Source: Victivallales bacterium
GTDB taxonomy: Bacteria > Verrucomicrobiota > Lentisphaeria > Victivallales > UBA1829
Direction: 5' to 3'
Assembly (NCBI GenBank): GCA_016285345.1
Contig: JAEEQN010000002.1
Span: 18,290-82,289, forward strand
DNA length: 64,000 nucleotides
Part shown: piece after piece, positions 8,352 to 63,354 of the stretch
Layout of the letters: each line of letters starts with the position of its first letter
How positions within the stretch are numbered: the first letter of the stretch is position 1
Position numbers and translations under genes: made by a program
Notes under the pieces: model-generated
What the model saw: only the letters and a program-made list of their open reading frames with translations
The model's database searches: none
What the model was told of the DNA's origin: nothing

Positions 8352-8352
8352 T

Positions 8353-14705: not shown

Positions 14706-14722
14706 ACAGCAAATGAGAGTGC

Positions 14723-30942: not shown

Positions 30943-30984
30943 ATTATTCTTACAAAAGCCCTTATGCCACACAAGGAGATTGTC

Positions 30985-34812: not shown

Positions 34813-34908
34813 GCGGAAGACGGCTTTAAGATCGTTCAATTTGCCTCCGGGATGGCACTCGCACCGTTCCGGAGGCTTCTTTCGTGCGCCCGGCAGGGTA
34901 CAAAAAAC

Positions 34909-34948
34909 AGCCCCCGGAACCTTCAGCAGGCCCGGGGGCTTCCTTTTC
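34909..34948. terminator. Bidirectional rho-independent terminator between the convergent Sel1 gene and metY
   Basis: AGCCCCCGG (34909-34917) pairs with CCGGGGGCT (34932-34940). It is followed by TCCTTTTC on the + strand and preceded by CAAAAAAC (a T-run on the - strand). Confidence 0.6.
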
Positions 34949-34998
34949 ACTTAACCCTAACTTTTTTTGTGCTCAAGCGAAGCTGAGCGCGCTACCCA

Positions 34999-35017
34999 CG
35001 TGGAGGGCTTGCCTTCC
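34999..35017. repeat. Third copy of the CGTGGAGGGCTTGCCYTCC hairpin motif, directly after the metY stop
   Basis: cgtggagggcttgccttcc matches 1630-1648 with one C/T difference. Confidence 0.5.
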
Positions 35018-36295: not shown

Positions 36296-36452
36296 GGTAG
36301 TATCTCCTTATGCGAACGGAATAGGAATTGTTCGTTGGTTCGTTTTTGTGTTCAGTACGGATTTCTGCGGTTGTTGAGCGTGGGGATTACTTGATCGGAC
36401 TCCTGACAGGTTGTTTGCTTTAATCTCTATCAAAAAAGTTGTGAATTGGTTC

Positions 36453-36525
36453 AGAAAAAATCCCGGAGCGGACTCCGGAAGCGGGTCGATGTGAACTAAT
36501 ATAGCACGAAAAATGGAGAAGTCAA
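36453..36525 (-). promoter_or_regulatory. Candidate promoter followed almost immediately by an intrinsic-terminator-like hairpin, upstream of metY
   Basis: On the minus strand: TTGACT (36520-36525), 16 nt spacer, TATATT (36498-36503), then CCGGAGTCCGCTCCGG (36463-36478) followed by GATTTTTT. Confidence 0.35.
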
Positions 36526-36649
36526 GAGAAAAAGGCGATAAAATTAGTAGATTTTTTTGTTCGTGTGCGGATTTAACCTCGAATTATGCCGAAAATAAAA
36601 CGGCGGACTTGCTTTTTTGAAAAAAAGGCTGTATTGTAAGGGATGATAA

Positions 36650-37612
36650 ATGCTTAAAACAGATTTGACGGAGTATATAATGAAAAACAATACGGTCGTA
36701 ACGGTCGGCGACATCAACTATCTGTGGGGCCTTTTCATGCTCATCGCCTCCATGCGGAAATCCGGCATGGACGAGCCGGTCCTGGTCGGGGCTCATAAGT
36801 TCACGCCCGAGGCGGAGGAGATACTGAAACAGCTCGGCGATGTGACCATCTACACGCTGAAAGATATCGACCATTCGCTCACCTGCTACAAGCCGCTTGT
36901 GATGCTTCAGGCGCAGACCGAATACATCACCTGGGCGGACAGCGACGGGTATTTCGTGGGAAACTGCTCGAAGCGCCTGCCGCCGCTTTCGCCGGAGGAG
37001 ATCCATGTCCGCATGCGGTCGCCGGAGGAACAGCCCGGTGCATTCCGCGGCTACGAATACGGCGAGGACGGGCGGAGCATCCCGAAAGTGATCCTGGACG
37101 TATGGAAAGCGGACATCGGCGGCAATTCCGAACCTCGCACGCACCGGAGCTGTTCCGCGTGCTGCATGTCCGTACATCAAAGCGCCCGCCCGTTTCTGGA
37201 GAAATGGCACAGCCAGATGATGAAGGTGCTGCCTGCCGGGAACAAAGGCGTGGAAGACCGTTCGTTGAAATACTACCACCAGCTTGATGAATCCGTCCTG
37301 AACAGCATTTTGAGCTTCTGGCCGCAGGCGCCGCGCGTTTCGGACACATACCGTCTGGACAAGGACCGTAACGAGCTGTTTGTTCATTTTGTCGGAATCC
37401 CGAAACCGTGGATCGGCTGGACGCCAAACTCGTTCCGACATTTCGATACGTATACGGCTGTCGCAGACTGGGCGGTTAAACAGGGGTTCAAACTCCCCGG
37501 TCCGCTTCCGTACAGCCTGAATCCGGCGCACAGGACCATGTGCCGTCTGCTGCTGCATCCTGTCAACATCTGCACGAAGGTCAAACGTCGTCTGAAAAAG
37601 ATGTGCCGTTAA
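36650..37612 (+). CDS. Putative nucleotide-diphospho-sugar glycosyltransferase (GT8-like)
   Basis: The TVVTVGDINYLWGLFMLIASMRKSG N-terminus and a DxD-like WADSDGY are reminiscent of GT8/GT-A enzymes. Alternative start at ATG 36680. Confidence 0.5.
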   Translation: MLKTDLTEYIMKNNTVVTVGDINYLWGLFMLIASMRKSGMDEPVLVGAHKFTPEAEEILKQLGDVTIYTLKDIDHSLTCYKPLVMLQAQTEYITWADSDGYFVGNCSKRLPPLSPEEIHVRMRSPEEQPGAFRGYEYGEDGRSIPKVILDVWKADIGGNSEPRTHRSCSACCMSVHQSARPFLEKWHSQMMKVLPAGNKGVEDRSLKYYHQLDESVLNSILSFWPQAPRVSDTYRLDKDRNELFVHFVGIPKPWIGWTPNSFRHFDTYTAVADWAVKQGFKLPGPLPYSLNPAHRTMCRLLLHPVNICTKVKRRLKKMCR

Positions 37613-37646
37613 AGACGGCCGCGCAGAGCTTTTCCGCGGTTCAGGC

Positions 37647-37680
37647 AAAAAGAAAACCGCAACGGGATAGCCCTTTGCGG
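37647..37680 (-). terminator. Rho-independent terminator downstream of the displaced tRNA-Arg 3' segment (ancestral tRNA terminator)
   Basis: On the minus strand: CCGCAA..TTGCGG stem (37657-37680) followed by TTTTCTTTTT (complement of 37647-37656). Confidence 0.5.
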
Positions 37681-37695
37681 CAGCAGAACAAGGCA

Positions 37696-37751
37696 AAAAA
37701 GTGGTGCACCCGGCGGGGCTCGAACCCACCACCTACTGCTCCGGAGGCAGT
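37696..37751 (-). repeat. att direct repeat, left copy: 3'-terminal 50 nt of tRNA-Arg plus 6 nt of flank
   Basis: 56/56 nt identical to 51498-51553 (aaaaagtggtgcacccggcggggctcgaacccaccacctactgctccggaggcagt). Confidence 0.9.
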
Positions 37752-37791
37752 GTGTCTTAAACTCAAAAATGGCTTAAGAAGGTGGTTTTTT

Positions 37792-37813
37792 CACGATTTT
37801 TCCACGATTCGTG
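37792..37813 (+). repeat. Arm-type-site-like motif pair (CACGATTTTTCCACGATTCGTG) near the left att
   Basis: The same ACGATTTTTC word recurs at 37953-37962, 51405-51444 (three tandem copies) and inverted at 51220-51243. Confidence 0.55.
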
Positions 37814-38022
37814 TTTGAAAAAGACCAAAATGTAAAGTATAGTATCCCTGTGATTCAAACCATATCAACCCTTCTGTTGTCCGGCATGGAGGTTGGGGGG
37901 TGCGAGTGATAGAGCATGAACGAGGGGCACCTAACTCCGTATTATTATAGCACCATTTTACGATTTTTCAAGCATCGAAATCATAAAGCCGGACAACGGG
38001 GATAAAAAACAAGGAGTCAATC

Positions 38023-39357
38023 ATGGTAAGACAACGGCGGCAGGGCGGAGCATGGTACTATCAGTTTATCCGAGGCGGCAAAGCATACCGTGGGTGTTGC
38101 GAGGGCGCGACAACTAAACGCGAAGCGGAAAGCTACGAAAGGGAAATCATCGCGACGGTGGAGAGCGCAGCCAAGCAGAAAACGGTAAAGGCGCTACTCG
38201 ACAATTTCAGAGAAGAATTGACCGGGGGCGAGAAGATCACCCTTAATGAAGCATTTGAACTGGCCGAACAGAAACCTCGTTCTCGGATTCCCGCCGAGAA
38301 GTATGCTGCAACGAAACGGGCCGTGTGGAACGATTTTCTGGCGTTCATGCGAGGCGAGCACCCGGATATCGAAAATCTGATCGACGTAACGGGAGCGCAT
38401 GCACAGGAGTACATCGCTCTCCTTCAGAAGTCAGGGCGGTATCAAAAGACCGTCAGCTATAGTCGTGGGGCGGGCCGGGGAGCAAGAACCATCATCACGC
38501 AGGCCGCTGATGGTGCATTGTCGGCGAGGACCGTCCGGCTTCATCAAACTGTATGTGCCGAGGTGTTCACGCTGCTTGCGAAGGACGCCGGATTGCAGGA
38601 AAATCCCTTTTCCGGGATCCGAATGATGAAGTCGGACACAGAGACGCGCGAAGCTTTCACTCCAGACGAACTCAAGACCATCTACGACAACCTCGACGAC
38701 TTCACTCGCCCGCTGTTCATGATGGCAGTATGGACGGGTTTTCGTGAGGGCGACATCTGCACGCTCAAATGGAGCGAAGTTGACCTCGTTCGTCGTTTGA
38801 TTACGCGGAGGACGCGCAAAACCAAAGTCGAGGTGCAGATCCCCATATCGAACCAGCTCTACGGGCTGTTGACCGCTACACCACGAACAGAATCCGAGTT
38901 TGTTTTTCCGAAACACGCCGAAATGTATCTGTCGAACCCAGACGGGGTCTCCTACAGAGTGAAGAGGTTTCTTGAGGGGCTGGGGATCGAGACAACTCGA
39001 ATTCCGGAAGGTCGGACGCGGGCAATCAGTGTGAAGGACCTCCACTCATGCCGCCACACATTCTGTTACTACGCCGGACTTGCGGGGATTCCTCTCGCGG
39101 TCGTTCAATCCATCGTCGGGCACATGAGCCCGGAGATGACGAAGCACTACTCGGCCCACGCTTCCATCGAGGACAAGCGGCGCGGCATGGAGCGTCTTTC
39201 ATTCTTCACGCAGGATGCGCTTCCAGAAGCGAAAGCAGACGAACCGGAACGGATAGAACTCCGGCAGCGGATCGAGACTCTGCCGATAGATACAGTCCGC
39301 GCTGTGCTCCAGTTTTTAAATGCACAGGGAATGACTGTTCAGATGGAGTTATTCTAA
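38023..39357 (+). CDS. Tyrosine recombinase / phage-type integrase
   Basis: The C-terminal catalytic region has WTGFREGDICTLKW (Arg I), HSCRHTF (HxxR), VGHMS and TKHY (Tyr nucleophile). The N-terminal SAM-like domain is typical of tRNA-targeting integrases. Confidence 0.9.
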   Translation: MVRQRRQGGAWYYQFIRGGKAYRGCCEGATTKREAESYEREIIATVESAAKQKTVKALLDNFREELTGGEKITLNEAFELAEQKPRSRIPAEKYAATKRAVWNDFLAFMRGEHPDIENLIDVTGAHAQEYIALLQKSGRYQKTVSYSRGAGRGARTIITQAADGALSARTVRLHQTVCAEVFTLLAKDAGLQENPFSGIRMMKSDTETREAFTPDELKTIYDNLDDFTRPLFMMAVWTGFREGDICTLKWSEVDLVRRLITRRTRKTKVEVQIPISNQLYGLLTATPRTESEFVFPKHAEMYLSNPDGVSYRVKRFLEGLGIETTRIPEGRTRAISVKDLHSCRHTFCYYAGLAGIPLAVVQSIVGHMSPEMTKHYSAHASIEDKRRGMERLSFFTQDALPEAKADEPERIELRQRIETLPIDTVRAVLQFLNAQGMTVQMELF

Positions 39358-39717
39358 CGGGTGACACGAAAGACGCACATGATCATCTTCGAGCCATAGG
39401 TTGGAGGATACTGCGTCGACTCTCAGCAATGAATATATACATTGCTGGTCTATTCTTTCATCGTCGCGACCATGCGAAGCATGTCGTTGGCGCTGAGGCT
39501 GTTCTTTTGTCAACCGGAAAAGCCACGCCTCACCGCCCTTGCTGGGGAGATGAGGCGCGGATTGTGTTATGAGGCAGTGCTTACAGGCTCGCGAGGATGC
39601 CCTTGCCGGACGCATCGAAGATGCGCTCCGTAGTGGCATCAAGGATGGCACTGACCAAAAAGAAAAACGCCGCAACAGATCGCTCTGCTACGGCGCTAAG
39701 GTTATCTGTTCTTGTTT

Positions 39718-40440
39718 TTATGCGATGACGGTCCACTCCATGCTGACGCCGTAGCCGAGGACGTTCCACTGGGTAGTGTCGCCGGAGGCGTAGTAGCCGA
39801 GCATGCCGGTGGAATACTGACGGACCAGGAGATCGTCCTGCTGATCGCCGTTGTAATCGCCCGCGCCGACGACGAACCAGTCCTCGGCATCCAGCTGATC
39901 GAGGCTAATGTACTTGCCTTCATCGGCAATACCGTCGGCAATCATGACCATGGAGCCGGATTCCTTGTGGAACAGGACCAGATCGTCTTTGCCATCACCC
40001 TTGAAGTCGCCGATGGCACGGACTTCCCAGCCAGACCAGTTGGCGGAGCCGAGCGAGGCCGAGGTGCCGTCGAGGTTGGCCGCGTAGAAGTACGTGCCAT
40101 TCGCGCCGGACATCACGATGGAGTCCTTGCCGTCGCCGTCGAAGTCACCGCAGCCGACCAGCGTCCAGTCGTCGCCGCCGAAGTTGCCGGAGAGAGAGAC
40201 CCAGTCCTCCTTGCCGTCTTTCCACGCACCGAGCGAGTAAAGCTCAGGCGCGTACCAGACGATGGAGTTCACGCCGGACGCATTGCCCGTGAGGTTGCCG
40301 ACCGCGTTCTTCCAGTCGATGTTTTTCTCGTTCGTGAGGTAACCGATGTTCACCCAGGTGGAGCCGTCCGGGAGGTCGTTCGAGTCGGCGTAATACCCGA
40401 TGTACGCGCCTTTGATCCCGGCATCGCTCGGACTCCGCTG
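39718..40440 (-). pseudogene. FG-GAP/VCBS-repeat protein fragment lacking an N-terminus
   Basis: GDFDGDGKDSIV, GDFKGDGKDDLVLF and GDYNGDQQDDLLV repeats. The frame stays open upstream of the listed GTG (40353) to a stop at 40441-40443, with no ATG or signal peptide. Confidence 0.55.
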
Positions 40441-40543
40441 TTAGGCTTTGGCGCTCCCGTTGCGGCTCCTGCGCCTCAGGGTGGCTTCAGCGGCGGAAAG
40501 GACATTGCTCTTTCATCCGTGCCGACTTAAAATTCCCTTTCCG

Positions 40544-41950
40544 TTACCAATCCATTCCATTTTGACAATATGAATCATCCGTGAAACTTGTTACTCCATA
40601 TTCCATCAATTCCTTCAATGATACGGCATTTTTTGAACTTGTAATCGTGTAGCATCCACATTGAAAACCAACAGCAAGCACAGAAGCTACGTATGCCGAA
40701 TCAATCGTGTTGATACTTTTTTCTGACACAATCCGTGTTTTTGTCAGGTCAATATTGTTTCTCTGTACAAATTCTGTCAATTCTGGCAGTGTAACGTAAC
40801 TGTCCCCGTGTTCCCCGGTATATCCCTCAATTTCTTCACCAAACACATCAAATGCCGTCTGAAGTATGCTTTCATCAAACGCTTTCACATGAAACTTTTT
40901 CAGCAGTCCATGTTTCATCAGCATAGACTTTACAGATTGCCACTGTTCCGTTGTAAGCGCAGGATGGGTGCTGAACATCGGACTCATTCCGTACCTTGCG
41001 CAGATCGCAAAGAAATCGTCAACCGTCAGAATCTTTGTTCCTGTCCAGTATGCGTTTTTATATCGTCCGAAATCCCATTCAAGCAGTTGTGCATATGTCA
41101 TATCGGAAACCCCCATTTTCGTTGACGGGGGATTCCCTTCCGCATCCCGTGCCGTTGCGTTGATCGTATCATCATGGATGCACACAAGCACACCGTCAGA
41201 CGTTGCCTTCGGAACAACGATACACACTGGGTATCCAAGCAGTCCTGCCATTTCAACCGCCGGACGGGTATTTTCCGGGCACAATTGACGGAATCCGAGA
41301 TGAGAACAGAAAATCGGTCTTGCGTCGGCCACTGTCGGATTGTATACCGCTTCCTCGCTGAACAGATAATCAATCGCAACCGTTACGTCTGCCCCAACCG
41401 TAATGGTGATTGTTGTTGTGTCCTGACTTAATGCAGGCGGTATTCTCCACGAATGTATTTCGTATTCGCTCCCATAACTGATATTGTAAACAGGAGAAGA
41501 GTACAATCCATTCTGGAATGTGATGGCAGCATTGCCGCCAGTGCATTTTGCACGGCATCTGACAATCTGCGGAAACGGCGATCTTGTTGTCAGCGTATAT
41601 CTTTGTGTACTCTTCCCGGTCAATGTAACATTGCGGAGTTTAATCCCTCTATACATATCGCCGATAATTCCGAACAGATATTCTTCCTTTTCTCTTGCGG
41701 TATAGTCTTTTGCATCCTTATTCAGTTTCTCTGCCTCTTCTACTGTCACGACAGGCACAGCGGCGGGATTGCCCATTTCTTCGGGTTTCGTTTCGGGAAC
41801 AGAGACTGCCGGTTTCCTGTCGGTCGCGGGGCTTTCGCTTTGAACCGTCTGAACAACAGCATTATCATGGCGATTGAATTCCTTGCAGCCGACAACAAGG
41901 AAAACAATCAAGGTAACTGTTATTGAAATCGGAGCGATCAGTCGTTTCAT
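40544..41950 (-). CDS. Lipoprotein with a C-terminal glycerophosphodiester-phosphodiesterase-like (GDPD) domain
   Basis: Lipobox LVVGC. SHLGFRQLCPENTRPAVEMA...SDGVLVCIHDDTINATARD resembles the GDPD H-R-G/ENT/..DG..V..HD motifs, although partly substituted. The gene is markedly AT-richer than its surroundings. Confidence 0.55.
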   Translation of the reverse strand: MKRLIAPISITVTLIVFLVVGCKEFNRHDNAVVQTVQSESPATDRKPAVSVPETKPEEMGNPAAVPVVTVEEAEKLNKDAKDYTAREKEEYLFGIIGDMYRGIKLRNVTLTGKSTQRYTLTTRSPFPQIVRCRAKCTGGNAAITFQNGLYSSPVYNISYGSEYEIHSWRIPPALSQDTTTITITVGADVTVAIDYLFSEEAVYNPTVADARPIFCSHLGFRQLCPENTRPAVEMAGLLGYPVCIVVPKATSDGVLVCIHDDTINATARDAEGNPPSTKMGVSDMTYAQLLEWDFGRYKNAYWTGTKILTVDDFFAICARYGMSPMFSTHPALTTEQWQSVKSMLMKHGLLKKFHVKAFDESILQTAFDVFGEEIEGYTGEHGDSYVTLPELTEFVQRNNIDLTKTRIVSEKSINTIDSAYVASVLAVGFQCGCYTITSSKNAVSLKELMEYGVTSFTDDSYCQNGMDW

Positions 41951-43184
41951 TTGTCAAGGATCCCCGGATTCTTAAAAACTGAAATCCCGGAACAGAAAGA
42001 CAAACTTCCATTCCGGGAAAAAGGTTCAAAGGCACGAGGCAGCTGCCGGACTAAAGGTTTTCCGGCAGGGAAGAAATATGCGCTGGATGAAGATATGAAC
42101 AGGAACACTGCGGCCTCGAACGGGTGACATTATACGCATGAGGCAACGCCTGGACAAAAAAAGCCGGACATTTCACATGCGCGGTGATGAAGGTCCGACC
42201 AAGAACCTGCTACTAGGACACAGAGAAACGCCCAGCAAAACATGAAGATACAATCTTCCTGTGCTGGTTTTTCATCCCTAGTAGCAAAAGAGGTCTTTTT
42301 GAAACTTGGTCGGTTTTCATCACCTTTTGCTGAAAAACGATGTAATGAGCTCGGAAACCGTCCTCCACTGGGTGCGGAGCCGGAATCCGGGGATAATTTA
42401 CCCCCAAGTCGCGAAAAAGTCAAGCCCCAATCCGGTGCTTTTCTCATCTTTTTCCGGATTTTCCGTCACCAGGACCGTCACAATACATCCACATAGAACA
42501 CAAAGGAATCTACATTTTCATATATTGAGCTTATCCCGCCTCGGATATTCTTTGTGCGATACAGGGCCGTAACATCCAAATGATTGACAGGCTGTCCGTT
42601 ATCTTATCCTGCTTGCTCTTTGCTTATGTGTCGTCCTATTTAGAGATGCAATGTTTATAATTACGAGTTCTAAAACAATCACTCTATACTTTCATTGTAT
42701 TTCAATTAATGTGTTTCCATTTCAAACTGGATCATTCTCTACACGATTTGAACTGACTAAAACGAAATTTTTCCCTGTTGGAATACATCTGCAAAAATTC
42801 AACTTGAAGTTGAAAATCTCTCTTCACATACGAGAAATGGTGTCGACACAATCTGATTGTAATATCGATAGAGCGTAATAATCAACAAATATTATCAATA
42901 CTCTTTGCTGCACATTATATTGTATTTCTATCTCGCCGCAATATGCAACAGAGATAAAGGTCAGATTATGGAAAACACATCGTCAGACCTCTGACGATGT
43001 GATCTATTGTTGCACCGATGGAGCCAGAATGTTTCTCCCGTCAAACAAAAATGCGCCTCTTCACGTCGTTTTCAGCCATTTTTGCCTCGTTTAAGCTTAA
43101 TTTTTCTCATTTTTGTGAGAATAATATGATGACGGGATTGGATTCGCCAGTCCCGCAATAAAACAACCATAGGAGTACAAAACT

Positions 43185-43901
43185 ATGAAAAAAACTAATG
43201 TGCTTGTCCTCGCTGGGCTAGCACTCGCTGTCCTTTTGGCTGCAGCCGGTATGCGTACCAATAGGACAACCACAAAATTCGCCGGAAATGCCTCCAGCCT
43301 TACGGAACTGGATCAGCGTGCGCGTCCATTCTTCGAGGAAGCCGAGAAAAGCATTCCGAATGTCGTCTCGGAACTCAGCGGCACTCAGGAGTTCCTGAAC
43401 ATGTGTGGACTGGCCGTTGTCGACAAGATCAGCGGTTCAAACAAGATGGAGCAGAAACTCGCTTCCGTGATAGACGGTTCGATTCTGGCCCCGTGTCGAA
43501 AGGGAGCCTCCGTCTACGGGTGCAACATCAATCCGGTTTTGGCTCGTGGCTCTCTGTCGGACCTTCATCGGGACGCGATGACTTCCGTTCTCTATGCGTC
43601 AGGGGGATTGGCTCTGGAAGCGGCATTCCTGAAGACGACCTTGAAGTCGGTGCAATGCGTCATTGGTCCGATCGCGGAAAAAAACGCCGCGAAAATCGGA
43701 ACTGGAGCCACACTTGCCGCAGCTGACGGGCCGCTCCCCATTGGCGACACCATCGGTGTCATTCTGGCTGTCGGTGGTTCCGCGTGGTCAGTTCATGACC
43801 TGCTTGCTCTTCGTCGAGACCTGCCGGGCGCAATTTCTGCCGCACTCCGGCAGGCAATCCAGGAGTATTGGAAACAGTGCAGATTGGAGGCCGCTCAATG
43901 A
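43185..43901 (+). CDS. Hypothetical secreted/membrane protein
   Basis: 238 aa. AGGAG RBS. N-terminal signal anchor (VLVLAGLALAVLLAAAG). Gly/Ala-rich hydrophobic C-terminal segment. Confidence 0.6.
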   Translation: MKKTNVLVLAGLALAVLLAAAGMRTNRTTTKFAGNASSLTELDQRARPFFEEAEKSIPNVVSELSGTQEFLNMCGLAVVDKISGSNKMEQKLASVIDGSILAPCRKGASVYGCNINPVLARGSLSDLHRDAMTSVLYASGGLALEAAFLKTTLKSVQCVIGPIAEKNAAKIGTGATLAAADGPLPIGDTIGVILAVGGSAWSVHDLLALRRDLPGAISAALRQAIQEYWKQCRLEAAQ

Positions 43902-44239
43902 AGACTCTCCTGATTCTGTTACTGGCCCTGATGACGGGCTTCGTTTCCGCCATGCCTGCGCGCCGCCCCTATCGGAAGCCGCTGAAGCCCGCCCGTGTCG
44001 TGGAGACAAACCGACCTGTCTCATGGAAGGCCGTGGCCGCCGCTGGAGCCGCCGCCACAGGCGTGGTAGCGGCCTACAAAATCGGGTCCGGCGTTGAGGA
44101 CGGCTTGTCTACCACAGCCAAAGAAGCCCCCGTGGCGTTCCTCAGCTCGATCACGCTGTCATCGCTCTTCATCCCCCTGATCACTGTCGTGGGCATCCCT
44201 GTCGTCGGATATCTGATCTGGCAGAAACTCTCAAATTAA
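43898..44239 (+). CDS. Small membrane protein (signal peptide plus C-terminal TM)
   Basis: ATGA overlap with the upstream stop. MKTLLILLLALMTGFVSA signal sequence. C-terminal TM LFIPLITVVGIPVVGYLIW. Confidence 0.55.
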   Translation: MKTLLILLLALMTGFVSAMPARRPYRKPLKPARVVETNRPVSWKAVAAAGAAATGVVAAYKIGSGVEDGLSTTAKEAPVAFLSSITLSSLFIPLITVVGIPVVGYLIWQKLSN

Positions 44240-44261
44240 CCTCAAACCGAAAGGATACAAC

Positions 44262-45803
44262 ATGGAAATCTCTTTGAACAAAACCGAGCTGACCGGAGCG
44301 CTTCCTGCCTTGGGGAAACTTGTCTCCCGGACGTCCCTTATCAAGGCGTATCAGGCGATCCAAATCGAAGGTAGGGCGCACACGCTCTTCTTCCGTACCC
44401 GCAACGTCGTCGAAGGAATCGAATTCCGAATGGACGCCGATTTGGAAGATGACTTTCCTGCGGTTCTCGTAGAATTCGAGCAGTTCCGACTGGCCGTCCG
44501 CAACAGCAAGAAAAAAACGCTGGACCTGGAAGTCGAGAATGGCGAGGTCTTCATTGATGACGTCATGCTCGCACCTGTGAACGGACACTTTCCCGTGCCA
44601 GAGAACATCCCGGATCAGGATGCCACGGTTACGGAACTGCCCGCCGACACGCTGGCCGCGCTGTCACTGCTTGCCCCGCTCACAGACAAAGGGCAGGACA
44701 TTCGCAAGGTTCTCGGCGGAATCAACATCAGCCGGGACGGGCTCACCGCGACCAACGGCAAGGAGCTGTCGAATATCCCGCTCTCACTGGAGATGACCGG
44801 TAACGTCACGATTCCGTTCCCGCTCGCTCTGCTTGCCACAAAAGCATTCGGCGAATCCGGCAGGCTCACGACCTGGCAGAAGGACGAGGACACGCGCTTC
44901 GAGCTTTCGCTTGGTAACTGGACCTGGCGGGCGAAGGCGTACAAAGAGAACTACCCGAACTGGAAGCTCGTCGTGCCGGACCGGACAGAGGCCACGCACT
45001 ATGTGAGCTTCCAGGACGACCGCGCCGAACTGCTCCAGCGTTACCTAAAAAGCGTTCCTGACGACCCGCAGAACAACAACGGCATCAAGCTGAGCCGTCT
45101 CGAAGTCCCGGACAACCTTCATCTGGAAAGTTCGAACGGGATGCTGTTCAGCGTTCTCGCCGAATTCGACGATGCTTGGGGCGACCTGAGTTTCACCGTC
45201 AGGAAAGAATTCCTCCTGCATCTGCTGAACGCCGGACACCGGAAGATCGAGCTCAACGATGCCTACGGTCCGATTGTCGGAACTGGTGGCAATGGCGAAT
45301 ATATCGCCATGCCTATCATCACCAAAAGACCGCAAGCTCAAACCGAGCAGAAGCCGGAAGAGACCGCATCCAGCCAGACGGATACAAACGTTGCTGTTCA
45401 GGCTGAACAGACCGCACCTCAACCCATTCCCGAACAAACGGAATCCGTCACCGAGCAGATTCCGAATCACGAACAGGAAACATCCCCCACAAACAAAACC
45501 AATACCACACCCTCAACGAAGGAAAACACCACCATGATCGACACCAACACCATCACGCACGTCGTGTCTGCCCCCGTGCAGACGTCCGCCCAGAACAACA
45601 AACCCGAATCCAAGTTGAACCCGATGGACGAACTGATCATCAGCATCGAAGCGTTCAAGGCCAAGCTCAAGGCCATGGTCGATGAATCCACCGCCATGAG
45701 CCGTAAGGTCTGCGAGGTCGCCATCTCCCAGAGGCAGAAGGAACGCGAGTACGCGCGGACGAAGAAGACCATCGAAAAAATCCGGGTGGCCAGCGGCTTC
45801 TGA
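44262..45803 (+). CDS. Divergent DNA polymerase III beta sliding-clamp (DnaN)-like protein with a C-terminal extension of about 140 aa
   Basis: Collinear by eye with E. coli DnaN: ISLNKTELTGALPALGKLV / FTVEREHLLKPLQQVSG; HFPVPENIP / DFPNLDDW; LTATNGKEL / VATDGHRLA; ENYPNWKLVVP / GRFPDYRRVLP; GEYIAMPI / AAYVVMPM. This is followed by a Thr/Pro/Gln-rich linker and a coiled coil. Confidence 0.65.
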   Translation: MEISLNKTELTGALPALGKLVSRTSLIKAYQAIQIEGRAHTLFFRTRNVVEGIEFRMDADLEDDFPAVLVEFEQFRLAVRNSKKKTLDLEVENGEVFIDDVMLAPVNGHFPVPENIPDQDATVTELPADTLAALSLLAPLTDKGQDIRKVLGGINISRDGLTATNGKELSNIPLSLEMTGNVTIPFPLALLATKAFGESGRLTTWQKDEDTRFELSLGNWTWRAKAYKENYPNWKLVVPDRTEATHYVSFQDDRAELLQRYLKSVPDDPQNNNGIKLSRLEVPDNLHLESSNGMLFSVLAEFDDAWGDLSFTVRKEFLLHLLNAGHRKIELNDAYGPIVGTGGNGEYIAMPIITKRPQAQTEQKPEETASSQTDTNVAVQAEQTAPQPIPEQTESVTEQIPNHEQETSPTNKTNTTPSTKENTTMIDTNTITHVVSAPVQTSAQNNKPESKLNPMDELIISIEAFKAKLKAMVDESTAMSRKVCEVAISQRQKEREYARTKKTIEKIRVASGF

Positions 45804-45883
45804 ACCGTCATCTCCCGACATCACCCCAACACCGCCCTCGGCAGCTCACTGTTGCTGGGGGCAATCTTTGAAAGGAAACCATC

Positions 45884-46360
45884 ATGCTCAAACTCAATGC
45901 ATCCTACAGCAAGAAAATCCCCGCACAATCTGAGTATTCTTCTCAGTCCTACCACGCCTCAGTCGAGGTCGAGCTTCCTGATGGACTCACGACCGAACAA
46001 TTGAATGCGAAGATCCACGAGACATTCGCGCTCGTCCGCGACAGCGTGGAAACGGAACTGCACGGAAACACGGTTCAGCAGTCCGCTCCGATCCCCCAGA
46101 CCTCGAACGCGCAGCCCCAACCGGGTCTGTACGAAAACCAGCCGCAAAACGCGTCGAAGCCCATCTACGGCAAGAAGAACGGCACGACCTCGGACGCTCC
46201 CGCTTCTCCCAAGCAGGTCAAGTACCTCCTTGATCTCGCCCGCCAGTTCGGAATCAATCCGGAGCAAATCAAGGCCAAGTTCAACGTGCCAGCGCTCGAA
46301 AGTCTAACGAAGACGCAGTGCAGCCGTGCCATTGATGAGCTCAACGGAAAGGCGGCCTGA
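45884..46360 (+). CDS. Hypothetical island protein
   Basis: 158-aa ORF with an RBS. Gln/Pro-rich middle section. The C-terminal ASPKQVKYLLDLARQFGINPEQI...LTKTQCSRAIDEL looks like a small helical DNA/protein-binding module. No assignment made. Confidence 0.55.
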   Translation: MLKLNASYSKKIPAQSEYSSQSYHASVEVELPDGLTTEQLNAKIHETFALVRDSVETELHGNTVQQSAPIPQTSNAQPQPGLYENQPQNASKPIYGKKNGTTSDAPASPKQVKYLLDLARQFGINPEQIKAKFNVPALESLTKTQCSRAIDELNGKAA

Positions 46361-46361
46361 T

Positions 46362-47153
46362 ATGGAACGCACAATTGAAACTGTCCGCGAGGCACCGCAC
46401 TGGTCGTACAGCTCGTTGCAGCTTTTTTTGAACTGCCCCTTGCGTTACTACTTCCGGTACGTTGAAAAAGCTGAGGTGGAAAGGACAAGTGTAAGCCTGC
46501 CGTTCGGGCGGGCTTTCCACGCCGTCTTGAGCCTTCGCGCGGAGAAAGGCTCGGTTTACAGCGCCGAGGACGCGAAAGAAGACTTTGCCGTGTACTTCCG
46601 AGGCGAAACCGAGGTCAGCGAGAACCTGACGTACAAGCAGGATGAGGACTATTGGTTCTGGGAACAGCGCGGATGCGACATGCTGGAGGTCGCTTTTGCA
46701 GAATGGCCGGACGATTATTCGGTCAAATCTGTGGCGGAGGCGTTCAGCGTGGACGTTCCAGGACTGAGCAAGCCTCTCATCGGCGAGTTCGATCTCGTCG
46801 TTAATGACGGCGGGGACGAAACGATCTGCGATTTTAAAACGGCGTCGACGAAGTGGCCGACCGGGAAAGCTGACAGAGATCTGCAGGCGACTGCCTTCTC
46901 ATTCGCATATCAGAAGCGCCACGGCAAAATCCCGATCTTCCGCTTCGACGTCTTCACGAAGGCGAAGAATCCGGTTCACCAGCAACTCTACACGCTCAGG
47001 ACGAACGATGATTTCGACCGTTTCGTCTACCTCGCCAACAAAATTGAGGCGGCAGTGAACACCGGCATCTTCCTCCCGGTAGAATCGTGCATGAACTGTG
47101 CTGAATGCGCCTACGGGGACCGCTGCAAAGCGGTCCACAGAAAGGCGGCGTAA
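46362..47153 (+). CDS. PD-(D/E)XK nuclease of the Cas4/RecB(AddB) type with a Fe-S cysteine cluster
   Basis: N-terminal FLNCPLRYYF, FDLVV...ICDFKT (D..(D/E)xK core) and C-terminal CMNCAECAYGDRC. Start taken at ATG 46362, 1 nt after the upstream stop. Confidence 0.7.
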   Translation: MERTIETVREAPHWSYSSLQLFLNCPLRYYFRYVEKAEVERTSVSLPFGRAFHAVLSLRAEKGSVYSAEDAKEDFAVYFRGETEVSENLTYKQDEDYWFWEQRGCDMLEVAFAEWPDDYSVKSVAEAFSVDVPGLSKPLIGEFDLVVNDGGDETICDFKTASTKWPTGKADRDLQATAFSFAYQKRHGKIPIFRFDVFTKAKNPVHQQLYTLRTNDDFDRFVYLANKIEAAVNTGIFLPVESCMNCAECAYGDRCKAVHRKAA

Positions 47154-47154
47154 C

Positions 47155-47883
47155 ATGGGACTGATTATGCAGGAAGGCAAATACGTCAGCCGTGATGAAG
47201 TCGCGTGTATCGACACCCCAAGTTCGACTGAAACATGGAGACCTGTGCCGCACATTGATGTCATCGAGGCCGTAACCGAAGTTGTCAAGGCTCACCGCTG
47301 GGATATTGCGGACGAACGGTTCGGCCTCGCCAGCGAAGGACAGAAGATGTTCGGCGTCATGGAAATCTCCCGTTCATCTTCGCCTCAATGGCATCGCTGT
47401 ATCGGCATCCGCAACAGCCACGACAAAACCCTTGCCGTTGGACTGTCTGCCGGAATCGTCGTTCTTGTCTGCTCCAACCTCGCTTTCGGCGGAACCACCG
47501 TCATCAAGCGCAAGCACACCAGCCGGTTTGAACTGACCGATCTGATCGACCGTGCCGTGGCATCGCTGGAGGACGACTTCCTGATGACCGAAACCGTGTG
47601 CGAGGACCTGAAGGACATCCACCTCAAAAACGATGACGAAGCCCGGAGTAGCATTGTGCGTGCTGCCGAGCTCGGCGTCATCAATTCCTGTGACATTCTT
47701 CCGGTCTACCGTGAATTCAAGTCCCCGTCACATGCCGAGTTCAAGGAGCCAACACGATGGAGCCTGTTGAATGCATTTACGGAAACCGTGAAGAAGTACA
47801 CGCCTCAGCGTGTGGACCACAGCTATCTCGCCCTGAACCGGGCGTTCGGGCTGGACGGTCGCCCTGCCGCCATCTTCACCTGA
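47155..47883 (+). CDS. DUF932-family protein (phage/plasmid-associated)
   Basis: IGIRNSHDKTLAVGLSAGIVVLVCSNLAF and the overall length resemble DUF932/TIGR03299 proteins. Start at ATG 47155, just after the upstream TAA. Confidence 0.6.
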   Translation: MGLIMQEGKYVSRDEVACIDTPSSTETWRPVPHIDVIEAVTEVVKAHRWDIADERFGLASEGQKMFGVMEISRSSSPQWHRCIGIRNSHDKTLAVGLSAGIVVLVCSNLAFGGTTVIKRKHTSRFELTDLIDRAVASLEDDFLMTETVCEDLKDIHLKNDDEARSSIVRAAELGVINSCDILPVYREFKSPSHAEFKEPTRWSLLNAFTETVKKYTPQRVDHSYLALNRAFGLDGRPAAIFT

Positions 47884-47910
47884 CGGCGAGAACGAGCAAC
47901 CCGGCATGGT

Positions 47911-47951
47911 CGGAGGTCGAAGGAGTGCAAGCCTTCCCTCCGGTTTTTTTT
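47911..47951 (+). terminator. Strong rho-independent terminator ending the clamp/nuclease/DUF932 operon
   Basis: CGGAGG+GAAGG (47911-47923) pair with CCTTC+CCTCCG (47932-47942), followed by eight T. Confidence 0.75.
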
Positions 47952-48014
47952 ATATTGAGGTTGCGCGAGCTGTCAAATCGACAAAAAAAGTTTCAGAAAA
48001 AATCGTTGTTTCGC

Positions 48015-48043
48015 TTGATTTCTCCTGTCGACGATGTTAAATT
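48015..48043 (+). promoter_or_regulatory. Candidate sigma70 promoter with an extended -10
   Basis: TTGATT (48015-48020), 17 nt spacer, TGtTAAATT (48035-48043). It lies between a terminator and a 0.7 kb non-coding stretch. Confidence 0.5.
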
Positions 48044-48049
48044 ATTTCT

Positions 48050-48760
48050 CGGCTGAAACAAGAGCGGCATCCCCGTTACCACCAACATCGGGGCGAAGCG
48101 CTCCAGACAGCCACCACACATCGTGATCTAACGGCGGACACCAGACTGAACCAAGGGTCGGACGCACCGAACCTCCAGCAGTGATCGGGCGGGAACATCC
48201 TCTCAGCCGGGCAAACAGAACGCTTGGATCGCGGTCACAGACTACAGCACATAGGTGAACGTTCAGCGCCTGCACTCGCAGCCCAAGAACGTCAGCTGTT
48301 CCCCAGAAGGCATCGGACCAAACCTATACGGTCGGCGATGCGAACAGCGCATAGGCGATGTCAAAACCGGCCAAAGCGGTCAAGACATCGGGCTGTCCCC
48401 AGATAGCATCGGGCCACCTATTCGGCCGAAATGCTATACCTCCCCAACACGACGTACCAATGACCGCCACTGCGGCGAGTCAGCGGGCGCGTACTGTTGT
48501 CCACGGCAGCAAACGACCCCAAAGGCCGGATGCCAACCGTCCAGAGCGAAGCATTGGACCACCAATGGTCTCAGATGCTTGGGAACAGCAGGGCCCGGAA
48601 ACATCCCGGAGCGAACTCAGGCCAGAAGCCTGAGCAAGGTTCGGAGTGCAACCGGGGCAACAACGGGCACAGGCCGAAAGGTCTGGGCAAAGCACTCGGT
48701 GAAGACCTCGCAGAAGCGGAATCGGCATCGGGAACAAACCTATGAAACAGGAGTCTTACA
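48050..48760 (+). ncRNA. Candidate large structured non-coding RNA / long 5' leader of the Xis-like gene
   Basis: About 710 nt with no plausible ORF. The + strand is T-poor. Local hairpins are dense: CATTGG-ACCA-CCAATG at 48552-48567, CTCAGGC-CAGAA-GCCTGAG at 48616-48634, AGGCC-GAAA-GGTCT at 48671-48684. A duplicated hairpin module lies at 48310-48341 and 48405-48435. Confidence 0.3.
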
Positions 48761-49105
48761 ATGAGCAACATGCTCGAACATACGCCCCAAAACGGGGAGA
48801 CAACGGACGGCCTCAAATCGGTCGTTCCGCAGAACGTACTGGATATCATCCGGTGCGCCATCTCGCCGTACCCCGTCCCTTGGAGCAGAATCCGTAATGC
48901 TATCTTATCAGAAGAGGACGGCAATTCAAAGTCTATTCTGCCAGATGATCTCATGGACACCGCAGAGGCCATTAAGGCTCTGAAAATCTCGCGTGTCACA
49001 CTTCATCGTCGTGTGCGGGAAGGAACCATCCCCGTACACAAATTAGGACGCAGAAATCTCTATTCTCTGAAGGAGATAAGGGAAGTCCTGCAGGTGGAGA
49101 ACTAA
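48761..49105 (+). CDS. Excisionase/AlpA-family helix-turn-helix DNA-binding protein
   Basis: LMDTAEAIKALKISRVTLHRRVREGTIPVHKLGRRNLYSLKEIREVL matches the excisionase-family HTH pattern. AGGAG RBS at 48750-48754. Confidence 0.7.
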   Translation: MSNMLEHTPQNGETTDGLKSVVPQNVLDIIRCAISPYPVPWSRIRNAILSEEDGNSKSILPDDLMDTAEAIKALKISRVTLHRRVREGTIPVHKLGRRNLYSLKEIREVLQVEN

Positions 49106-49407
49106 CGACCATCATAGATCATCCCACAAGACCACGACAGGTCCCGCGATCTCGTGACAAATCGCTGGTAGGCAGCAAACCATGGTAGGCTCCTTCACTC
49201 CTGGCGAGCTGTCTCCGGTGAGCGTCCGGCTCTGCTAACTGAAAGCCCATTGCCGCTACATCGGCTCACACAGGCGAACAGCCCAGCGAACCCGACGATG
49301 CGTCACAACAAGGTCTCGACTTATGATCTACACGGCAGCCACCCCAACTGTCTCTGTGAGAATCGTTCCTGTCTGGCAAAGGACAACGAACACCGTCTGA
49401 AAATAAC

Positions 49408-51029
49408 ATGCAAAACAAAACAACCAATATCCATGCGCCGAGGGACAACTCCCACGGTGCGAACACCCCTGGCTCAGACCAGTCTTCGGACACCGAGAAT
49501 CGTACCAAGCTCTCGCGAGAAGTCCAGACCGACCGGATCAAGCAATTTCCCGAAGAATCGGGAATTGATACGGAACGGTGTAACAATCGCGTTGAGAATG
49601 ACACGACCGCTTCGGCGTACGACTGGCTGCCCAAGCCGATCAAATACAACTCCAAAACGCGCGAGGACCAGACCGACAGGTGTATTCTCCGCAATGGGAA
49701 ACAGGGAAGTGCGCCTGAAACACTGCCGAAGAAAGAGAGCGTGAAAACGGCAGCCAAGCACAACCCGCAAATCGGACAGCAGAATACCAGACAGACTGAC
49801 TCCTTCTGGACCGGTGGTTCTGAACGCTCCGGCAGTTCATCAAAGCAGAAACACAAACAGCGGTACTATGATCCGCTAATCGGAAATCATGTCATCCCGA
49901 TCATCTGGAATCATGACCTCCTGGAACGAATCGCGGACAGGGACAATCTCCTACAAGCAATCGCCTTCTTAGCCCGTCACAAGGAGAAAACTCCTGGTCC
50001 GGACCACAAGAGCGTGGAGGAGACCTGCATCATGCTTTCCGATCCGGAGAACCTGGAACGCCTTCGGCAACAGCTTCTTCAGGAAACATACCGACCCGGT
50101 AATGTCCAATCAACACAAATCCCCAAATCCAACGGAAAGACGCGGCCCTTAAAGATCGCGACTGTGATGGATCGCTGCGTACAGCGTGCAATCCTACAGC
50201 AGGTAATCACGAACCTACCGAAGAATCCGTGGTGCCCCTACTCCTTTGCATACCACCACGGGCAAAACACGACCGACGCAATCGAAGAAGTCAACAGGAT
50301 CCGGGAAGAGGGATACAAGTACGCTATCGAACTGGACCTCGAGTCCTTCTTCGACAATGTACGGCATACCAGACTCCTGAAGAAACTCCGTAGACATATC
50401 GCCGATAAGAGGGTAGTCCGAATGATCTCTCACATCATATCGGCCCTTATCATCAATAATCACGGGGAGCTGACGAAAAACCGCAAAGGCACACCGCAAG
50501 GCTTCGCGATTTCCTCATGGCTCGCAGCAGACCTATACCTGGATGAAATGGATCAGGAAATGACACGGCGCAACCTGCGCTTCGTCCGTTTCGCTGACGA
50601 CATTACTATATTCACCCGCTCGAAGAAGTCGGCCAAGCGTGTCAAGGCCAGAATCATCGAGTTCACTGAAAACGTAATGGAATGTCCGGTCAACAAGAAG
50701 AAAACCAGAATCGTCACCATTGAGAACGTCTCCCCTCCCTCTTGGGAGTCGAACTCAGGGATGGCCACTGGAGAATCCTTCGCGAAAAGGTCCGCAACCA
50801 CTGCGGCGAATACATGAAGGACATAGCCAAGTATAAGAAAACGAAGAATGACTACTACATCCGCAAGGCAGCCCAGAGCATGCAGGGATTCATCGGCGGT
50901 TACACCAGGATTCCTGACATCTGCCTGAGACAAATTCGGGCACTGAGATGCTGGTGCATGAACAGGTGGTGGGCCACGGGTGAACGCAAGCTGTTCTTCG
51001 CCCAGAAACGCTGGATGGTGCCAGACTAA
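49408..51029 (+). pseudogene. Group-II-intron-type reverse transcriptase (RT plus thumb/X, no endonuclease domain), interrupted by a frameshift near 50735
   Basis: RT0 LLERIADRDNLLQA; RT2 IPKSNGKTRPLKIATVMDRCVQRA; RT4 LDLESFFDNVRH; RT5 GTPQGFAISSWLAADLYL; FADD; KTRIV. The thumb continues in the -1 frame (50742-51029: LGVELRDGHWRI...MQGFIGGY). The first roughly 165 codons are low-complexity and probably not genuine protein. Confidence 0.75.
49457..51029 (+). mobile_element. Group II intron-like retroelement remnant: 5' GUGCG, domain-I-like RNA and an intron-encoded RT; no domain V/VI recognised
   Basis: GTGCG at 49457-49461. GATACGGAAC (49567), GCGTTGAG (49589) and GTACGACTG (49617) occur in the same order and roughly the same spacing as GAUACGGGAAC/GCGAUGAG/GUACGACUG in Ll.LtrB domain I, as I recall that sequence. 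Confidence 0.4.
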
Positions 51030-51091
51030 CCACGGGACGCAAACGCTACTCTGCAAAGATGAACTGAATTACCGCTCTATTAACTGAGCCT

Positions 51092-51135
51092 GAGCAGCGC
51101 TTCAGGTGTGAATGACCTGGAGTGCTGCTCTTTTT
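51092..51135 (+). terminator. Strong rho-independent terminator after the RT
   Basis: GAGCAGCGCTTCAGG (51092-51106) pairs over 15 bp (two G-U) with CCTGGAGTGCTGCTC (51116-51130), followed by TTTTT. Confidence 0.75.
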
Positions 51136-51219
51136 GATTTCGCTGACGGCACTCGTCTTTGGCTTCCGAAGAACAATTAACCTCAACCCAAGCAACCGAA
51201 ATGCCGTTTTTAACCTCAG

Positions 51220-51243
51220 ATCGTGGCAAAATCGTGGAAAAGG
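51220..51243 (-). repeat. Inverted copies of the arm-type motif (ATCGTGGCAAAATCGTGGAAAAGG)
   Basis: The reverse complement reads CCTTTTCCACGATTTTGCCACGAT, related to the direct copies at 51405-51444 and 37792-37813. Confidence 0.5.
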
Positions 51244-51404
51244 TCCCCATTTCCACAATTGTCGTGGCGAATGATCGCTGCTGTTTTCAGCACGATGGGA
51301 CGTACCAGACAGGAACCGGAGGCATATCGCGGAAGGCTCGGTTTTCCACGGACATACATGAATGCTTGAGCAGGAAGGGCGAAAAATCTGAGCTCAAAAG
51401 CCTG

Positions 51405-51444
51405 CCACGATTTTTCCACGATTTTTCCACGATTTGTGTCACGA
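51405..51444 (+). repeat. Three tandem arm-type motifs (CCACGATTTTT x2, CCACGATTTGTGTCACGA) next to the right att
   Basis: ccacgatttttccacgatttttccacgatttgtgtcacga lies 54 nt from the direct repeat. Confidence 0.55.
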
Positions 51445-51497
51445 AACATAAAAAAACACCATGTTTCACGATGTATGAAAAATGGTGATTTAAGCTC

Positions 51498-51553
51498 AAA
51501 AAGTGGTGCACCCGGCGGGGCTCGAACCCACCACCTACTGCTCCGGAGGCAGT
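51498..51553 (-). repeat. att direct repeat, right copy (inside the intact tRNA-Arg)
   Basis: Identical to 37696-37751. Confidence 0.9.
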
Positions 51554-51580
51554 CGCTCTATCCAAATGAGCTACGGGTGC
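51504..51580 (-). tRNA. tRNA-Arg (anticodon CCG)
   Basis: The reverse complement folds as a 77-nt cloverleaf: GCACCCG/TA/GCTC-ATTTGGATA-GAGC/G/ACTGC-CTCCGGA-GCAGT/AGGTG/GTGGG-TTCGAGC-CCCGC/CGGGTGC/A/CCA. Anticodon loop C-U-CCG-G-A. CCA is encoded. Confidence 0.9.
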
Positions 51581-51675
51581 ACTGCATAACGCAGTCAAAT
51601 AATATAGCGCAAAGTCAAAAAAAAGCAAATCCTCGTCTCGAAAAAGCAGGAAAAACGTTGAGGAAGGGGGGCGGA

Positions 51676-60125: not shown

Positions 60126-60152
60126 CCCTTCATTCAAAAAAGGATTCCCGAT

Positions 60153-60806: not shown

Positions 60807-60840
60807 GCGGGACGGGTTAAGCCGATTTCTGTAAAAGAAC

Positions 60841-60878
60841 CGGGCGGTGCGGAGATACAGTATAATCCGCGCCGCCCG
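60841..60878. terminator. 13-bp hairpin between convergent genes (probable terminator, better T-tract on the minus strand)
   Basis: CGGGCGGTGCGGA (60841-60853) pairs with TCCGCGCCGCCCG (60866-60878). On the minus strand it is followed by GTTCTTTTAC. Confidence 0.45.
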
Positions 60879-60967
60879 AACTGTTTCCGCTCAGTTCAGA
60901 AAAAAGTGCTGTTATCAGGTTTCCAATTCCGAGGAAGAGAACAGTTTTTCTTTTTTTGCCGGTATTG

Positions 60968-63256: not shown

Positions 63257-63354
63257 TTCTCCTTATCTTTTACAAACCTTCTGTTTAATCATCACGGACC
63301 TCTTTTTCCGGCATTTTATATGCATAAAGCTTTTTGATCCTGCGGTTTTCTGTT

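Follow-up and report, generated by a model that had tools for sequence, protein, structure and literature searches.

Organization of the tRNA-Arg(CCG) locus

The 64-kb window (the whole stretch of DNA analysed here, from contig JAEEQN010000002.1 of a Victivallales bacterium) contains a single tRNA gene, tRNA-Arg(CCG), which was detected with ARAGORN on the minus strand (51504-51580) in agreement with Rfam. A repeat search of the window revealed that the 3' part of this gene belongs to a direct repeat of 56 identical positions out of 56, with one copy at 51498-51553 and the other at 37696-37751. These coordinates are those of the initial annotation, which had interpreted the 13.8 kb between the two copies as an integrative island. 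The repeat is composed of the last 50 nt of the tRNA (51504-51553) and of 6 nt past its 3' end. Considering about 2e9 position pairs and a probability of 4^-56 for each of them, we calculated that about 1e-25 exact 56-nt repeats would be expected by chance in 64 kb.

The sequences that follow the two copies are different. In the sense of the tRNA, the distal copy is followed by GCCTTG..., then by a hairpin (37656-37681) and by a T-run (37646-37655), with a folding energy of -14.9 kcal/mol. The z-score of this fold is -1.26, which alone is not significant, and the consensus terminator scan passed over the structure due to an internal mismatch, so that it was seen by folding instead. The GCCTTG... 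sequence is ancestral and is common to the related loci L011 and L009 (described below), in line with the proposal that the left copy is still followed by the tRNA's own terminator. The intact tRNA-Arg, on the other hand, runs into the island sequence GAGCTTAAATCACC....

Inside the two attachment (att) repeats, the arm-type unit CCACGATTTTT of 11 nt is found in 2.2 copies at 37786-37809, in 2.8 copies at 51405-51435 and in inverted orientation at 51220-51241. Arm-type repeats had been claimed from the first reading, and these units are putative integrase-binding repeats located within both ends. The tRNA-proximal arm is 86-88% identical to the arms of three other loci (L050, L084 and L070), in which the arm motif of 37786-37814 is also present.

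From the distal att repeat and arm, the island consists successively of the integrase gene, two cargo genes on the minus strand, a low-GC spacer of 1.2 kb including a structured RNA, an operon on the plus strand, an 877-nt spacer, the gene of a helix-turn-helix (HTH) protein of the HTH_17 family, a reverse transcriptase (RT) gene with its terminator, the proximal arm and the att core in the tRNA (Table 1). Accessory genes thus occupy two places, with surface-protein cargo beside the integrase gene and the RT in the tRNA-proximal slot. The segment ~37696-51553 is very probably an integrated mobile element of the tyrosine-recombinase type that targets tRNA genes, in the chromosome of a rumen Lentisphaeria (Victivallales).

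Table 1. Coordinates of the features of the island and of its insertion site in the 64-kb window.
Feature	Position	Strand	Evidence or remark
Ancestral tRNA-Arg intrinsic terminator	37646..37681	-	fold; island now between terminator and gene
Distal att repeat, displaced copy of tRNA-Arg 3' 50 nt + 6 nt	37696..37751	-	56/56 identity
Arm-type repeats TTTTTCCACGA, 2.2 copies	37786..37814	+	abut promoter-like site of the integrase gene at 37815-37843
Tyrosine integrase, 444 aa, intact	38023..39357	+	PF00589 3.9e-21; phrog_1 4.7e-48
FG-GAP repeat open reading frame (ORF), 211 aa	39718..40353	-	Pfam
Cargo lipoprotein with glycerophosphodiester phosphodiesterase (GDPD) domain, 468 aa	40544..41950	-	PF03009 5.2e-9; NF006989
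Structured non-coding RNA, ~180 nt, three nested helices	42168..42345	+	conservation to ~42430
Two conserved backbone genes, 238 aa (43185-43901) and 123 aa (43868-44239)	43185..44239	+	no family match
Sliding-clamp (DnaN)-like protein, 513 aa	44262..45803	+	phrog_947 processivity factor 3.8e-17; TIGR00663 dnaN 1.4e-10, under cutoff
Conserved backbone protein, 158 aa	45884..46360	+	no family match; sister-element homologues 68-84% identical
PD-(D/E)XK (Cas4/RecB-like) exonuclease	46326..47153	+	PF12705 2.4e-23; phage exonuclease PHROGs
DUF932 protein	47098..47883	+	PF06067 3.7e-11
A/C-rich non-coding spacer, 877 nt	47884..48760	+	one diverged unit ~48137-48201
HTH_17 excisionase-family protein, 114 aa, intact	48761..49105	+	phrog_66/4691/1840; PF12728 precomputed for identical gene
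RT gene	49408..51029	+	RVT_1 1e-34; TIGR04416 222 bits; ORF 49408-50817, then other frame to 51029
Intrinsic terminator after RT, 15-bp hairpin + T-run	51092..51135	+	kept in many family loci
tRNA-proximal arm	51217..51439		inverted arm-type repeats 51217-51241; three direct CCACGATTTTT units 51405-51437
Proximal att repeat, 3' part of functional tRNA-Arg	51498..51553	-	repeat search
Intact tRNA-Arg(CCG), integration target	51504..51580	-	ARAGORN, Rfam

Empty site and authenticity of the junctions

The kinase gene that flanks the island (51676-53874) was used to retrieve relatives of the locus, which are metagenome-assembled genomes of rumen Lentisphaeria/Victivallales. One of them (L011, from RUG12414) has a kinase 94% identical to that of the window, followed by tRNA-Arg(CCG), by ~180 nt and by the orthologue of window 34901-37615 (89.5% identity). 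The 13.8-kb segment is missing from this relative and its site matches the island boundaries exactly. Since the tRNA-Arg site of L011 is uninterrupted, the 13.8 kb are an insertion; the initial annotation had proposed that the island split the ancestral 3' end of the tRNA and had named an empty site in a related genome as the check. The sequence following the tRNA in L011 (CTTTTTTTGCCTT) and in L009 (ATTGCCTTG) is that found after the displaced copy, and not that found after the intact tRNA. This ancestral downstream sequence beside the displaced copy is the signature of an integration by recombination inside the 3' end of tRNA-Arg.

From the way in which such integrases work, a circular form of the element would have recombined with the 3' end of tRNA-Arg(CCG) by its attP site, itself presumably made of 56 nt that duplicate the 3' end of the tRNA and lie between arms that carry the CCACGATTTTT integrase-binding repeats. 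The copy brought by the element would have rebuilt tRNA-Arg, while the original 3' end and its terminator would have been moved 13.8 kb off. The integrase and the HTH protein could still excise the element.

The probability that this arrangement is a mis-assembly, or that the displaced copy is a tRNA pseudogene unrelated to an insertion, is practically negligible. One public contig (L001) stops within the repeat, a sign that assemblers struggle here. Nevertheless, the island is present with identical flanking genes on contigs of two further assemblies (GCA_016648615.1 and GCA_016295205.1), L001 being one of these contigs, and the recurrence of the junctions in these assemblies excludes a mis-join. 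The exact fit of the empty site of L011 and a second island with the same layout (L143 and L050, see below) also contradict an artefact.

The comparison with the sister assembly GCA_016295205.1 (L002), made over window positions 35000-45213, gave 100% identity up to ~43,700 and 69-76% identity from the clamp-like gene on. This break points to a module swap within the island, apparently a recent one, and agrees with the mosaic cargo described at first. In eight other relatives (L003-L008, L010 and L013; kinase identity of 82-92%), the 10 kb that follow the kinase gene contain no tRNA-Arg. Their homology to the window ends at ~51670-51700, and the synteny at this junction varies across the lineage.

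Gene content of the island

The integrase was aligned to Tn1549 Int, Brujita gp33 and lambda Int, and the catalytic residues are conserved: the arginine of TGFR, the His-x-x-Arg of HSCRH, the histidine of GH and the tyrosine of KHY. The identification as a tyrosine integrase is thereby established, and more than 550 homologues were found at E<=1e-60. Its location at the end away from the intact tRNA, which had been remarked on at first, is a trait common to the element family and not an oddity.

The Xis-like HTH protein of the initial annotation is a member of the excisionase family HTH_17, with E-values between 1e-7 and 3e-4 against excisionase PHROGs. The score with TIGR01764 (6.7e-4, 20 bits) is under the cutoff of 28.8, and no relative of solved structure was detectable by sequence. 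This protein of 114 aa is a candidate Xis and could equally be a transcriptional regulator.

Concerning the cargo beside the integrase gene, the FG-GAP ORF matches only the C-termini (62-64% identity) of an ORF of 2429 aa in L009 and of a protein of 1567 aa in L148, and is probably a cargo remnant. The backbone operon begins with the genes of 238 and 123 aa, which have syntenic homologues in L037, L062/L074, L068, L076 and L088; their hydrophobic N-termini, read by eye, suggest membrane or secreted products. The clamp-like protein gave zero matches by tblastn against phages. The DUF932 protein has distant matches only (25-29% identity) in phages and plasmids. Its homologue in the Salinibacter phage M8CRM-1 adjoins a RecE-like exonuclease, an SSB and an ERF annealase, and in view of this neighbourhood the island backbone looks like a phage-type DNA-metabolism module. 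The six backbone ORFs are all intact.

Two non-coding motifs were observed near the operon. A palindrome with perfect 11-bp arms, CACATCGTCAGA CC TCTGACGATGTG, is located at 42976-43001 within the AT-rich spacer that precedes the backbone operon and may be an operator or a bidirectional terminator. The unit of the 877-nt spacer at ~48137-48201 corresponds to a 123-nt unit repeated three times in tandem in L049 (186-549), upstream of the HTH gene; this array could represent iterons, an origin or an RNA array.

The reverse transcriptase

The initial annotation included neither the RT gene with its frameshift nor the structured RNA, and did not remark on the lack of virion and transfer genes. The frame of the RT gene is broken by a 5-bp tandem duplication (CTCCC twice, 50730-50739), after which the thumb/X-like C-terminus carries on in another frame to 51029. 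The intact homologues of 537 aa, P0001 (L049) and P0002 (L048), with 92% and 87% protein identity, are without the duplication, and an identical truncated product of 469 aa is found in GCA_016648615.1. A programmed frameshift and a sequencing error are ruled out, as the duplication is missing from the close homologues and present in a second assembly; the RT of the window is therefore a recent pseudogene.

The best NCBIfam match of the RT is TIGR04416 (group II intron RT/maturase) with 222 bits, against 60-63 bits for the retron RT models. The nearest solved structures are the GsI-IIC RT (3.6e-68) and other group II RTs, whereas the enzyme is distant from G2L4 (1e-15), DRT2 and retron RTs. The Rfam models of group II ribozymes gave no match, either over 17 kb with a threshold of E<=1 or over 3.7 kb with one of E<=10. 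A mobile group II intron is thus ruled out by the lack of ribozyme match and by the hairpin following the ORF, which is a plain 15-bp terminator without the bulge of domain V. A retron is likewise ruled out, since the scores are far below those of group II and no retron RNA family was matched, and so is a diversity-generating retroelement, as the region 36000-53000 contains no imperfect repeat of at least 60 nt besides att. On these matches, the RT is a predicted free-standing group-II-like (G2L) RT, closest to the group II RTs and without intron RNA.

The family of this RT includes ~39 clusters at 90% identity, with a conserved Y/FADD active site and no match to PF08388. It is characterized by a conserved N-terminal extension of ~90 residues comprising the motifs R-x-VQA-xRRN, GQPG, PQDGQQDT, SASS and YDPLxGxH. 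This conserved region is protein-coding sequence and not a ribozyme. Over the first 170 codons (49408-49920), the substitutions between close relatives are 23/27/25 by codon position, versus 13/16/46 in the RT domain, and the nonsynonymous:synonymous ratio is 42:14. The final ~90 residues encoded there are nonetheless kept throughout the family, and REVQ(A/T)(E/D)R recurs two or three times in some members; the stretch furthest upstream may evolve fast or may not be translated. IMG/VR was scanned for the RT family, for the arm sequence and for the ncRNA pattern, and nothing related came up. The RT family has so far been seen only on integrative elements of Lentisphaeria.

In the alignment with L048 and L049, similarity to sister elements whose integrases differ extends no further than the RT terminator (51092-51135). 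Two of the four integrase homologues sampled (L147 and L148) belong to complete elements of the same integrase lineage that have no RT. This rules out that the RT is one of the core genes of the family, and makes it an optional passenger of the tRNA-proximal slot. By analogy, its role would be a dispensable accessory function, most plausibly in conflict with phages or other mobile genetic elements. RT-bearing satellites and defence hotspots are the basis of this analogy.

Several sister elements (L053-L057 and L060) have a second, highly diverged RT-like gene (for example L060 7282-8619; 24-28% identity, weak RVT_1), which follows the HTH_17 gene and immediately precedes the family RT. A candidate defence ATPase, PDC-S01, is likewise found in L060.

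The structured RNA

Four other elements share the conserved block at ~42133-42462, and L009 retains a truncated version of it. With RNAalifold on a MAFFT alignment, compensatory changes were observed in 20 of the 57 pairs. In the alignment of the five sequences, 94.5% of cells pair, as compared with 30-45% when the partners are slid. Changes on both sides occur in 15 of 44 pairs, and none of 500 shuffles attained the value observed. Two G-U pairs that never vary, plus others, fit the plus strand alone. The covariance model scored 156-201 bits in the four other elements and was found only in the ncRNA-bearing loci (window, L062/L074, L081, L037 and L050, and truncated in L009). The structured RNA has no match in Rfam.

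The ncRNA always leads co-oriented genes. It abuts the RT start in L050 and precedes HTH-DUF3987-RT in L081, the integrase and RT genes in L074 and the HTH_17 gene in L037; in the window, 7 kb separate it from the RT, which follows on the same strand. The most economical reading is that it serves the operon of the element as a leader or a regulator. A function as partner of the RT is possible and unsupported, because most RT loci are without the ncRNA. We propose only tentatively that the RT family and the co-oriented RNA of ~180 nt together make up an RT-based accessory system that has not been described before and that arose recently from group IIC introns. Such a system might act in conflict with phages or between elements, the RNA being a leader, a regulator or a template.

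It could also be envisaged that the RT, perhaps together with the structured RNA, serves the propagation of the element itself. All of the ~40 loci of the RT family are in integrase-bearing contexts, next to a tRNA or directly after the integrase gene, and an RT is present at every ncRNA locus except L009, a decayed remnant without RT; the ncRNA is upstream of the RT and co-oriented with it except in L037. However, these loci were retrieved via the RT, so that the association is partly circular. Moreover, the complete elements L147 and L148, sampled via the integrase, have neither RT nor ncRNA, most RT loci with long flanks are devoid of ncRNA, and the RT of the window is broken while the remaining element is intact. 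The RT-less sisters largely refute this explanation, which is very improbable.

A family of related elements and an integration hotspot

The loci of the family were gathered via the RT and, independently, via the integrase. They constitute a large family of small elements in rumen Lentisphaeria with a common gene order: a partial tRNA, the integrase gene, variable cargo, the HTH_17 gene, a gene of the replication type, a slot of variable content, the arm and, on the opposite strand, the intact tRNA. The targets include tRNA-Arg(CCG) (window, L050 and L084), tRNA-Thr(TGT) (L048 and L148), tRNA-Pro(GGG) (L070), tRNA-Arg(TCT) (L147) and tRNA-Met (L041). The contigs L143 and L050 overlap at 100% identity and, with a repeat of 58 nt, form a second complete island of ~22 kb at tRNA-Arg(CCG), where the integrase gene is distal and the RT proximal as in the window.

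The arm of L070 (3044-3237) is 88% identical to the proximal arm of the window, yet it abuts tRNA-Pro(GGG), which implies a switching of core sites while the arm sites are conserved. The HTH-RT block of L048 is 85% identical to that of the window, and different arm repeats are found beyond the RT terminator. The arm of L070, the break in L048 and the identity step in the sister assembly indicate that these elements are modular mosaics. After the HTH gene, sister elements carry DUF5906 or DUF3987 proteins, and their cargo includes PDC-S01 and SLFN/AlbA_2 ATPases.

Decayed remnants of related islands were detected at the same tRNA-Arg in L009 (12368-22193) and in L012 (12462-13100). They contain arm-like repeats, the truncated ncRNA and fragments of 25-26 aa of the PD-(D/E)XK and DUF932 genes; the region in L009 also includes the giant FG-GAP gene of 2429 aa. 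The presence of these remnants marks tRNA-Arg as a recurrent hotspot.

Nature of the element

Among the island ORFs, Pfam and PHROG searches identified no capsid, terminase, portal or tail family, and family searches identified no relaxase, coupling protein or type IV secretion system (T4SS) family, nor a recognisable oriT. A prophage is ruled out, as virion and packaging genes were not found among these ORFs and 13.8 kb are too small. An integrative and conjugative element (ICE) is ruled out by the lack of relaxase, coupling protein and T4SS. From its gene content, the island is best regarded as a small integrative element, satellite-like or mobilisable, and neither as a prophage nor as an ICE.

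A more specific proposal is a phage satellite resembling P4 or the phage-inducible chromosomal islands, excised and replicated upon induction by a helper, packaged in helper capsids and carrying cargo (including the RT) for phage interference. The small size, the integrase, the AlpA/Xis-like HTH protein, the phage-like DNA-metabolism module and the lack of structural genes are consistent with it, as are the DUF5906 or DUF3987 proteins after the HTH gene of sister elements, domains that presumably occur in satellite primase-helicases, and the defence-like cargo of these sisters. The window copy, however, contains no identified helper phage, cos/pac site, capsid-redirecting gene or primase, the family was not found in IMG/VR by RT protein, arm sequence or ncRNA pattern, and the clamp-like protein is without phage match by tblastn. 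We therefore consider a phage satellite in this strict sense unlikely.

Several observations weigh against the reading of the island as an integrated mobile element. Exact-protein look-ups gave only island-bearing contigs and no conspecific empty site, the empty site being known only from a relative of a different species (L011). The island is present in all near-identical strains and may be fixed. Neither an excised circle nor a contig with an attP junction was observed, the metagenome scans having been aimed at RT loci. The function of Xis leans on weak family matches under curated cutoffs, and a replication initiator or primase was not recognised in the window copy. Finally, the RT frameshift and the FG-GAP ORF, which matches a C-terminus alone, are signs of decay. 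Together with the presence in all near-identical strains and with the clearly decayed related islands of L009 and L012 at the same tRNA, these signs are those expected of an island that integrated once and is now a fixed, decaying remnant unable to excise. Against this, the repeat is still identical at 56 of 56 positions although the displaced copy is free of selection as a tRNA, no break is seen in the integrase gene, the HTH gene or any of the six backbone ORFs, and the arm repeats are kept at both ends. An immobile relic is on balance rather doubtful. The perfect repeats and the intact integrase and HTH genes would favour an integrative element that remains active, as the initial annotation had suggested, while the fixation and the two decayed genes urge caution.

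Other features of the window

Upstream of the island, the gene 30964-34812 encodes a protein of 1282 aa made of many near-identical repeat units, Sel1/TPR-like by eye; its DNA displays an internal periodicity of ~108 nt and dense self-matches of 70-78% identity. A low-GC region (44-53%) at 6000-15000 corresponds to a cluster of polysaccharide biosynthesis and export (Bac_transf, Wza-like Poly_export/SLBB, pyruvyl transferase). The GC content also falls towards the right end (60000-64000), to 45-54%.

Comparison with known systems

The element shares with the tRNA-linked islands and satellites encoding lambda/P4-type integrases the integration in the 3' end of a tRNA that is regenerated, the direct repeats of this 3' end, the arm-type sites, the small HTH excisionase or regulator, and accessory genes including an RT near an att end. 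An example of a P4-like element with a retron is phiR73, at the selC tRNA. Unlike P4-like elements, the integrase gene of the window is distal to the intact tRNA, no homologues of the P4 alpha primase, sid, psu and delta were found, the backbone is composed of the clamp-like, PD-(D/E)XK and DUF932 genes, the RT is group-II-like and not of the retron type, and the host is a Lentisphaeria. With regard to satellites in general, the integrase, the HTH gene and the size (class of 7-15 kb) fit, whereas helper-interaction genes are not recognisable and a primase was not recognised here. With ICEs and integrative and mobilisable elements, the island has in common a site-specific integrase, an excisionase-like gene and cargo, and DUF932 proteins are common on conjugative elements; it differs from them by the lack, among its ORFs, of relaxase, coupling protein, T4SS and recognisable oriT.

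Concerning the RT, group IIC introns hold the solved RT structures nearest to that of the window, and their RTs are presumably, like the latter, without endonuclease domain. In contrast to these introns, the window gave no match to domains V/VI or D1-D4, even at E<=10. Free-standing G2L RTs have been described (Simon & Zimmerly 2008, PMC2602772; Gonzalez-Delgado et al. 2021, PMC8632793), and a preprint gives YIDD as the active site of G2L4 (10.1101/2022.03.14.484287). The RT family of the window resembles the G2L RTs by its proximity to group II intron RTs, its thumb/X-like C-terminus, its Y/FADD motif and the lack of an intron ribozyme. It differs by its own N-terminal extension of ~90 aa, by the lack of PF08388 and of an endonuclease (En) domain, and by its location on integrative elements.

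As an island, the element is a textbook case, ordinary in kind and mainly of value for annotation. Its novelty is modest and concerns the host phylum, the element family, the clade of G2L-type RTs and the unannotated RNA. The comparison shows that tRNA-Arg(CCG) is a hotspot where integration has recurred in rumen Lentisphaeria, and it defines an extensive family of small integrative elements, so far undescribed, from a phylum that is uncultured and has received little study. The passengers are the more useful leads: an RT clade that is very near true intron RTs, rides on integrase-bearing elements and could show how intron RTs are domesticated, and an RNA that covaries strongly and has no Rfam family.

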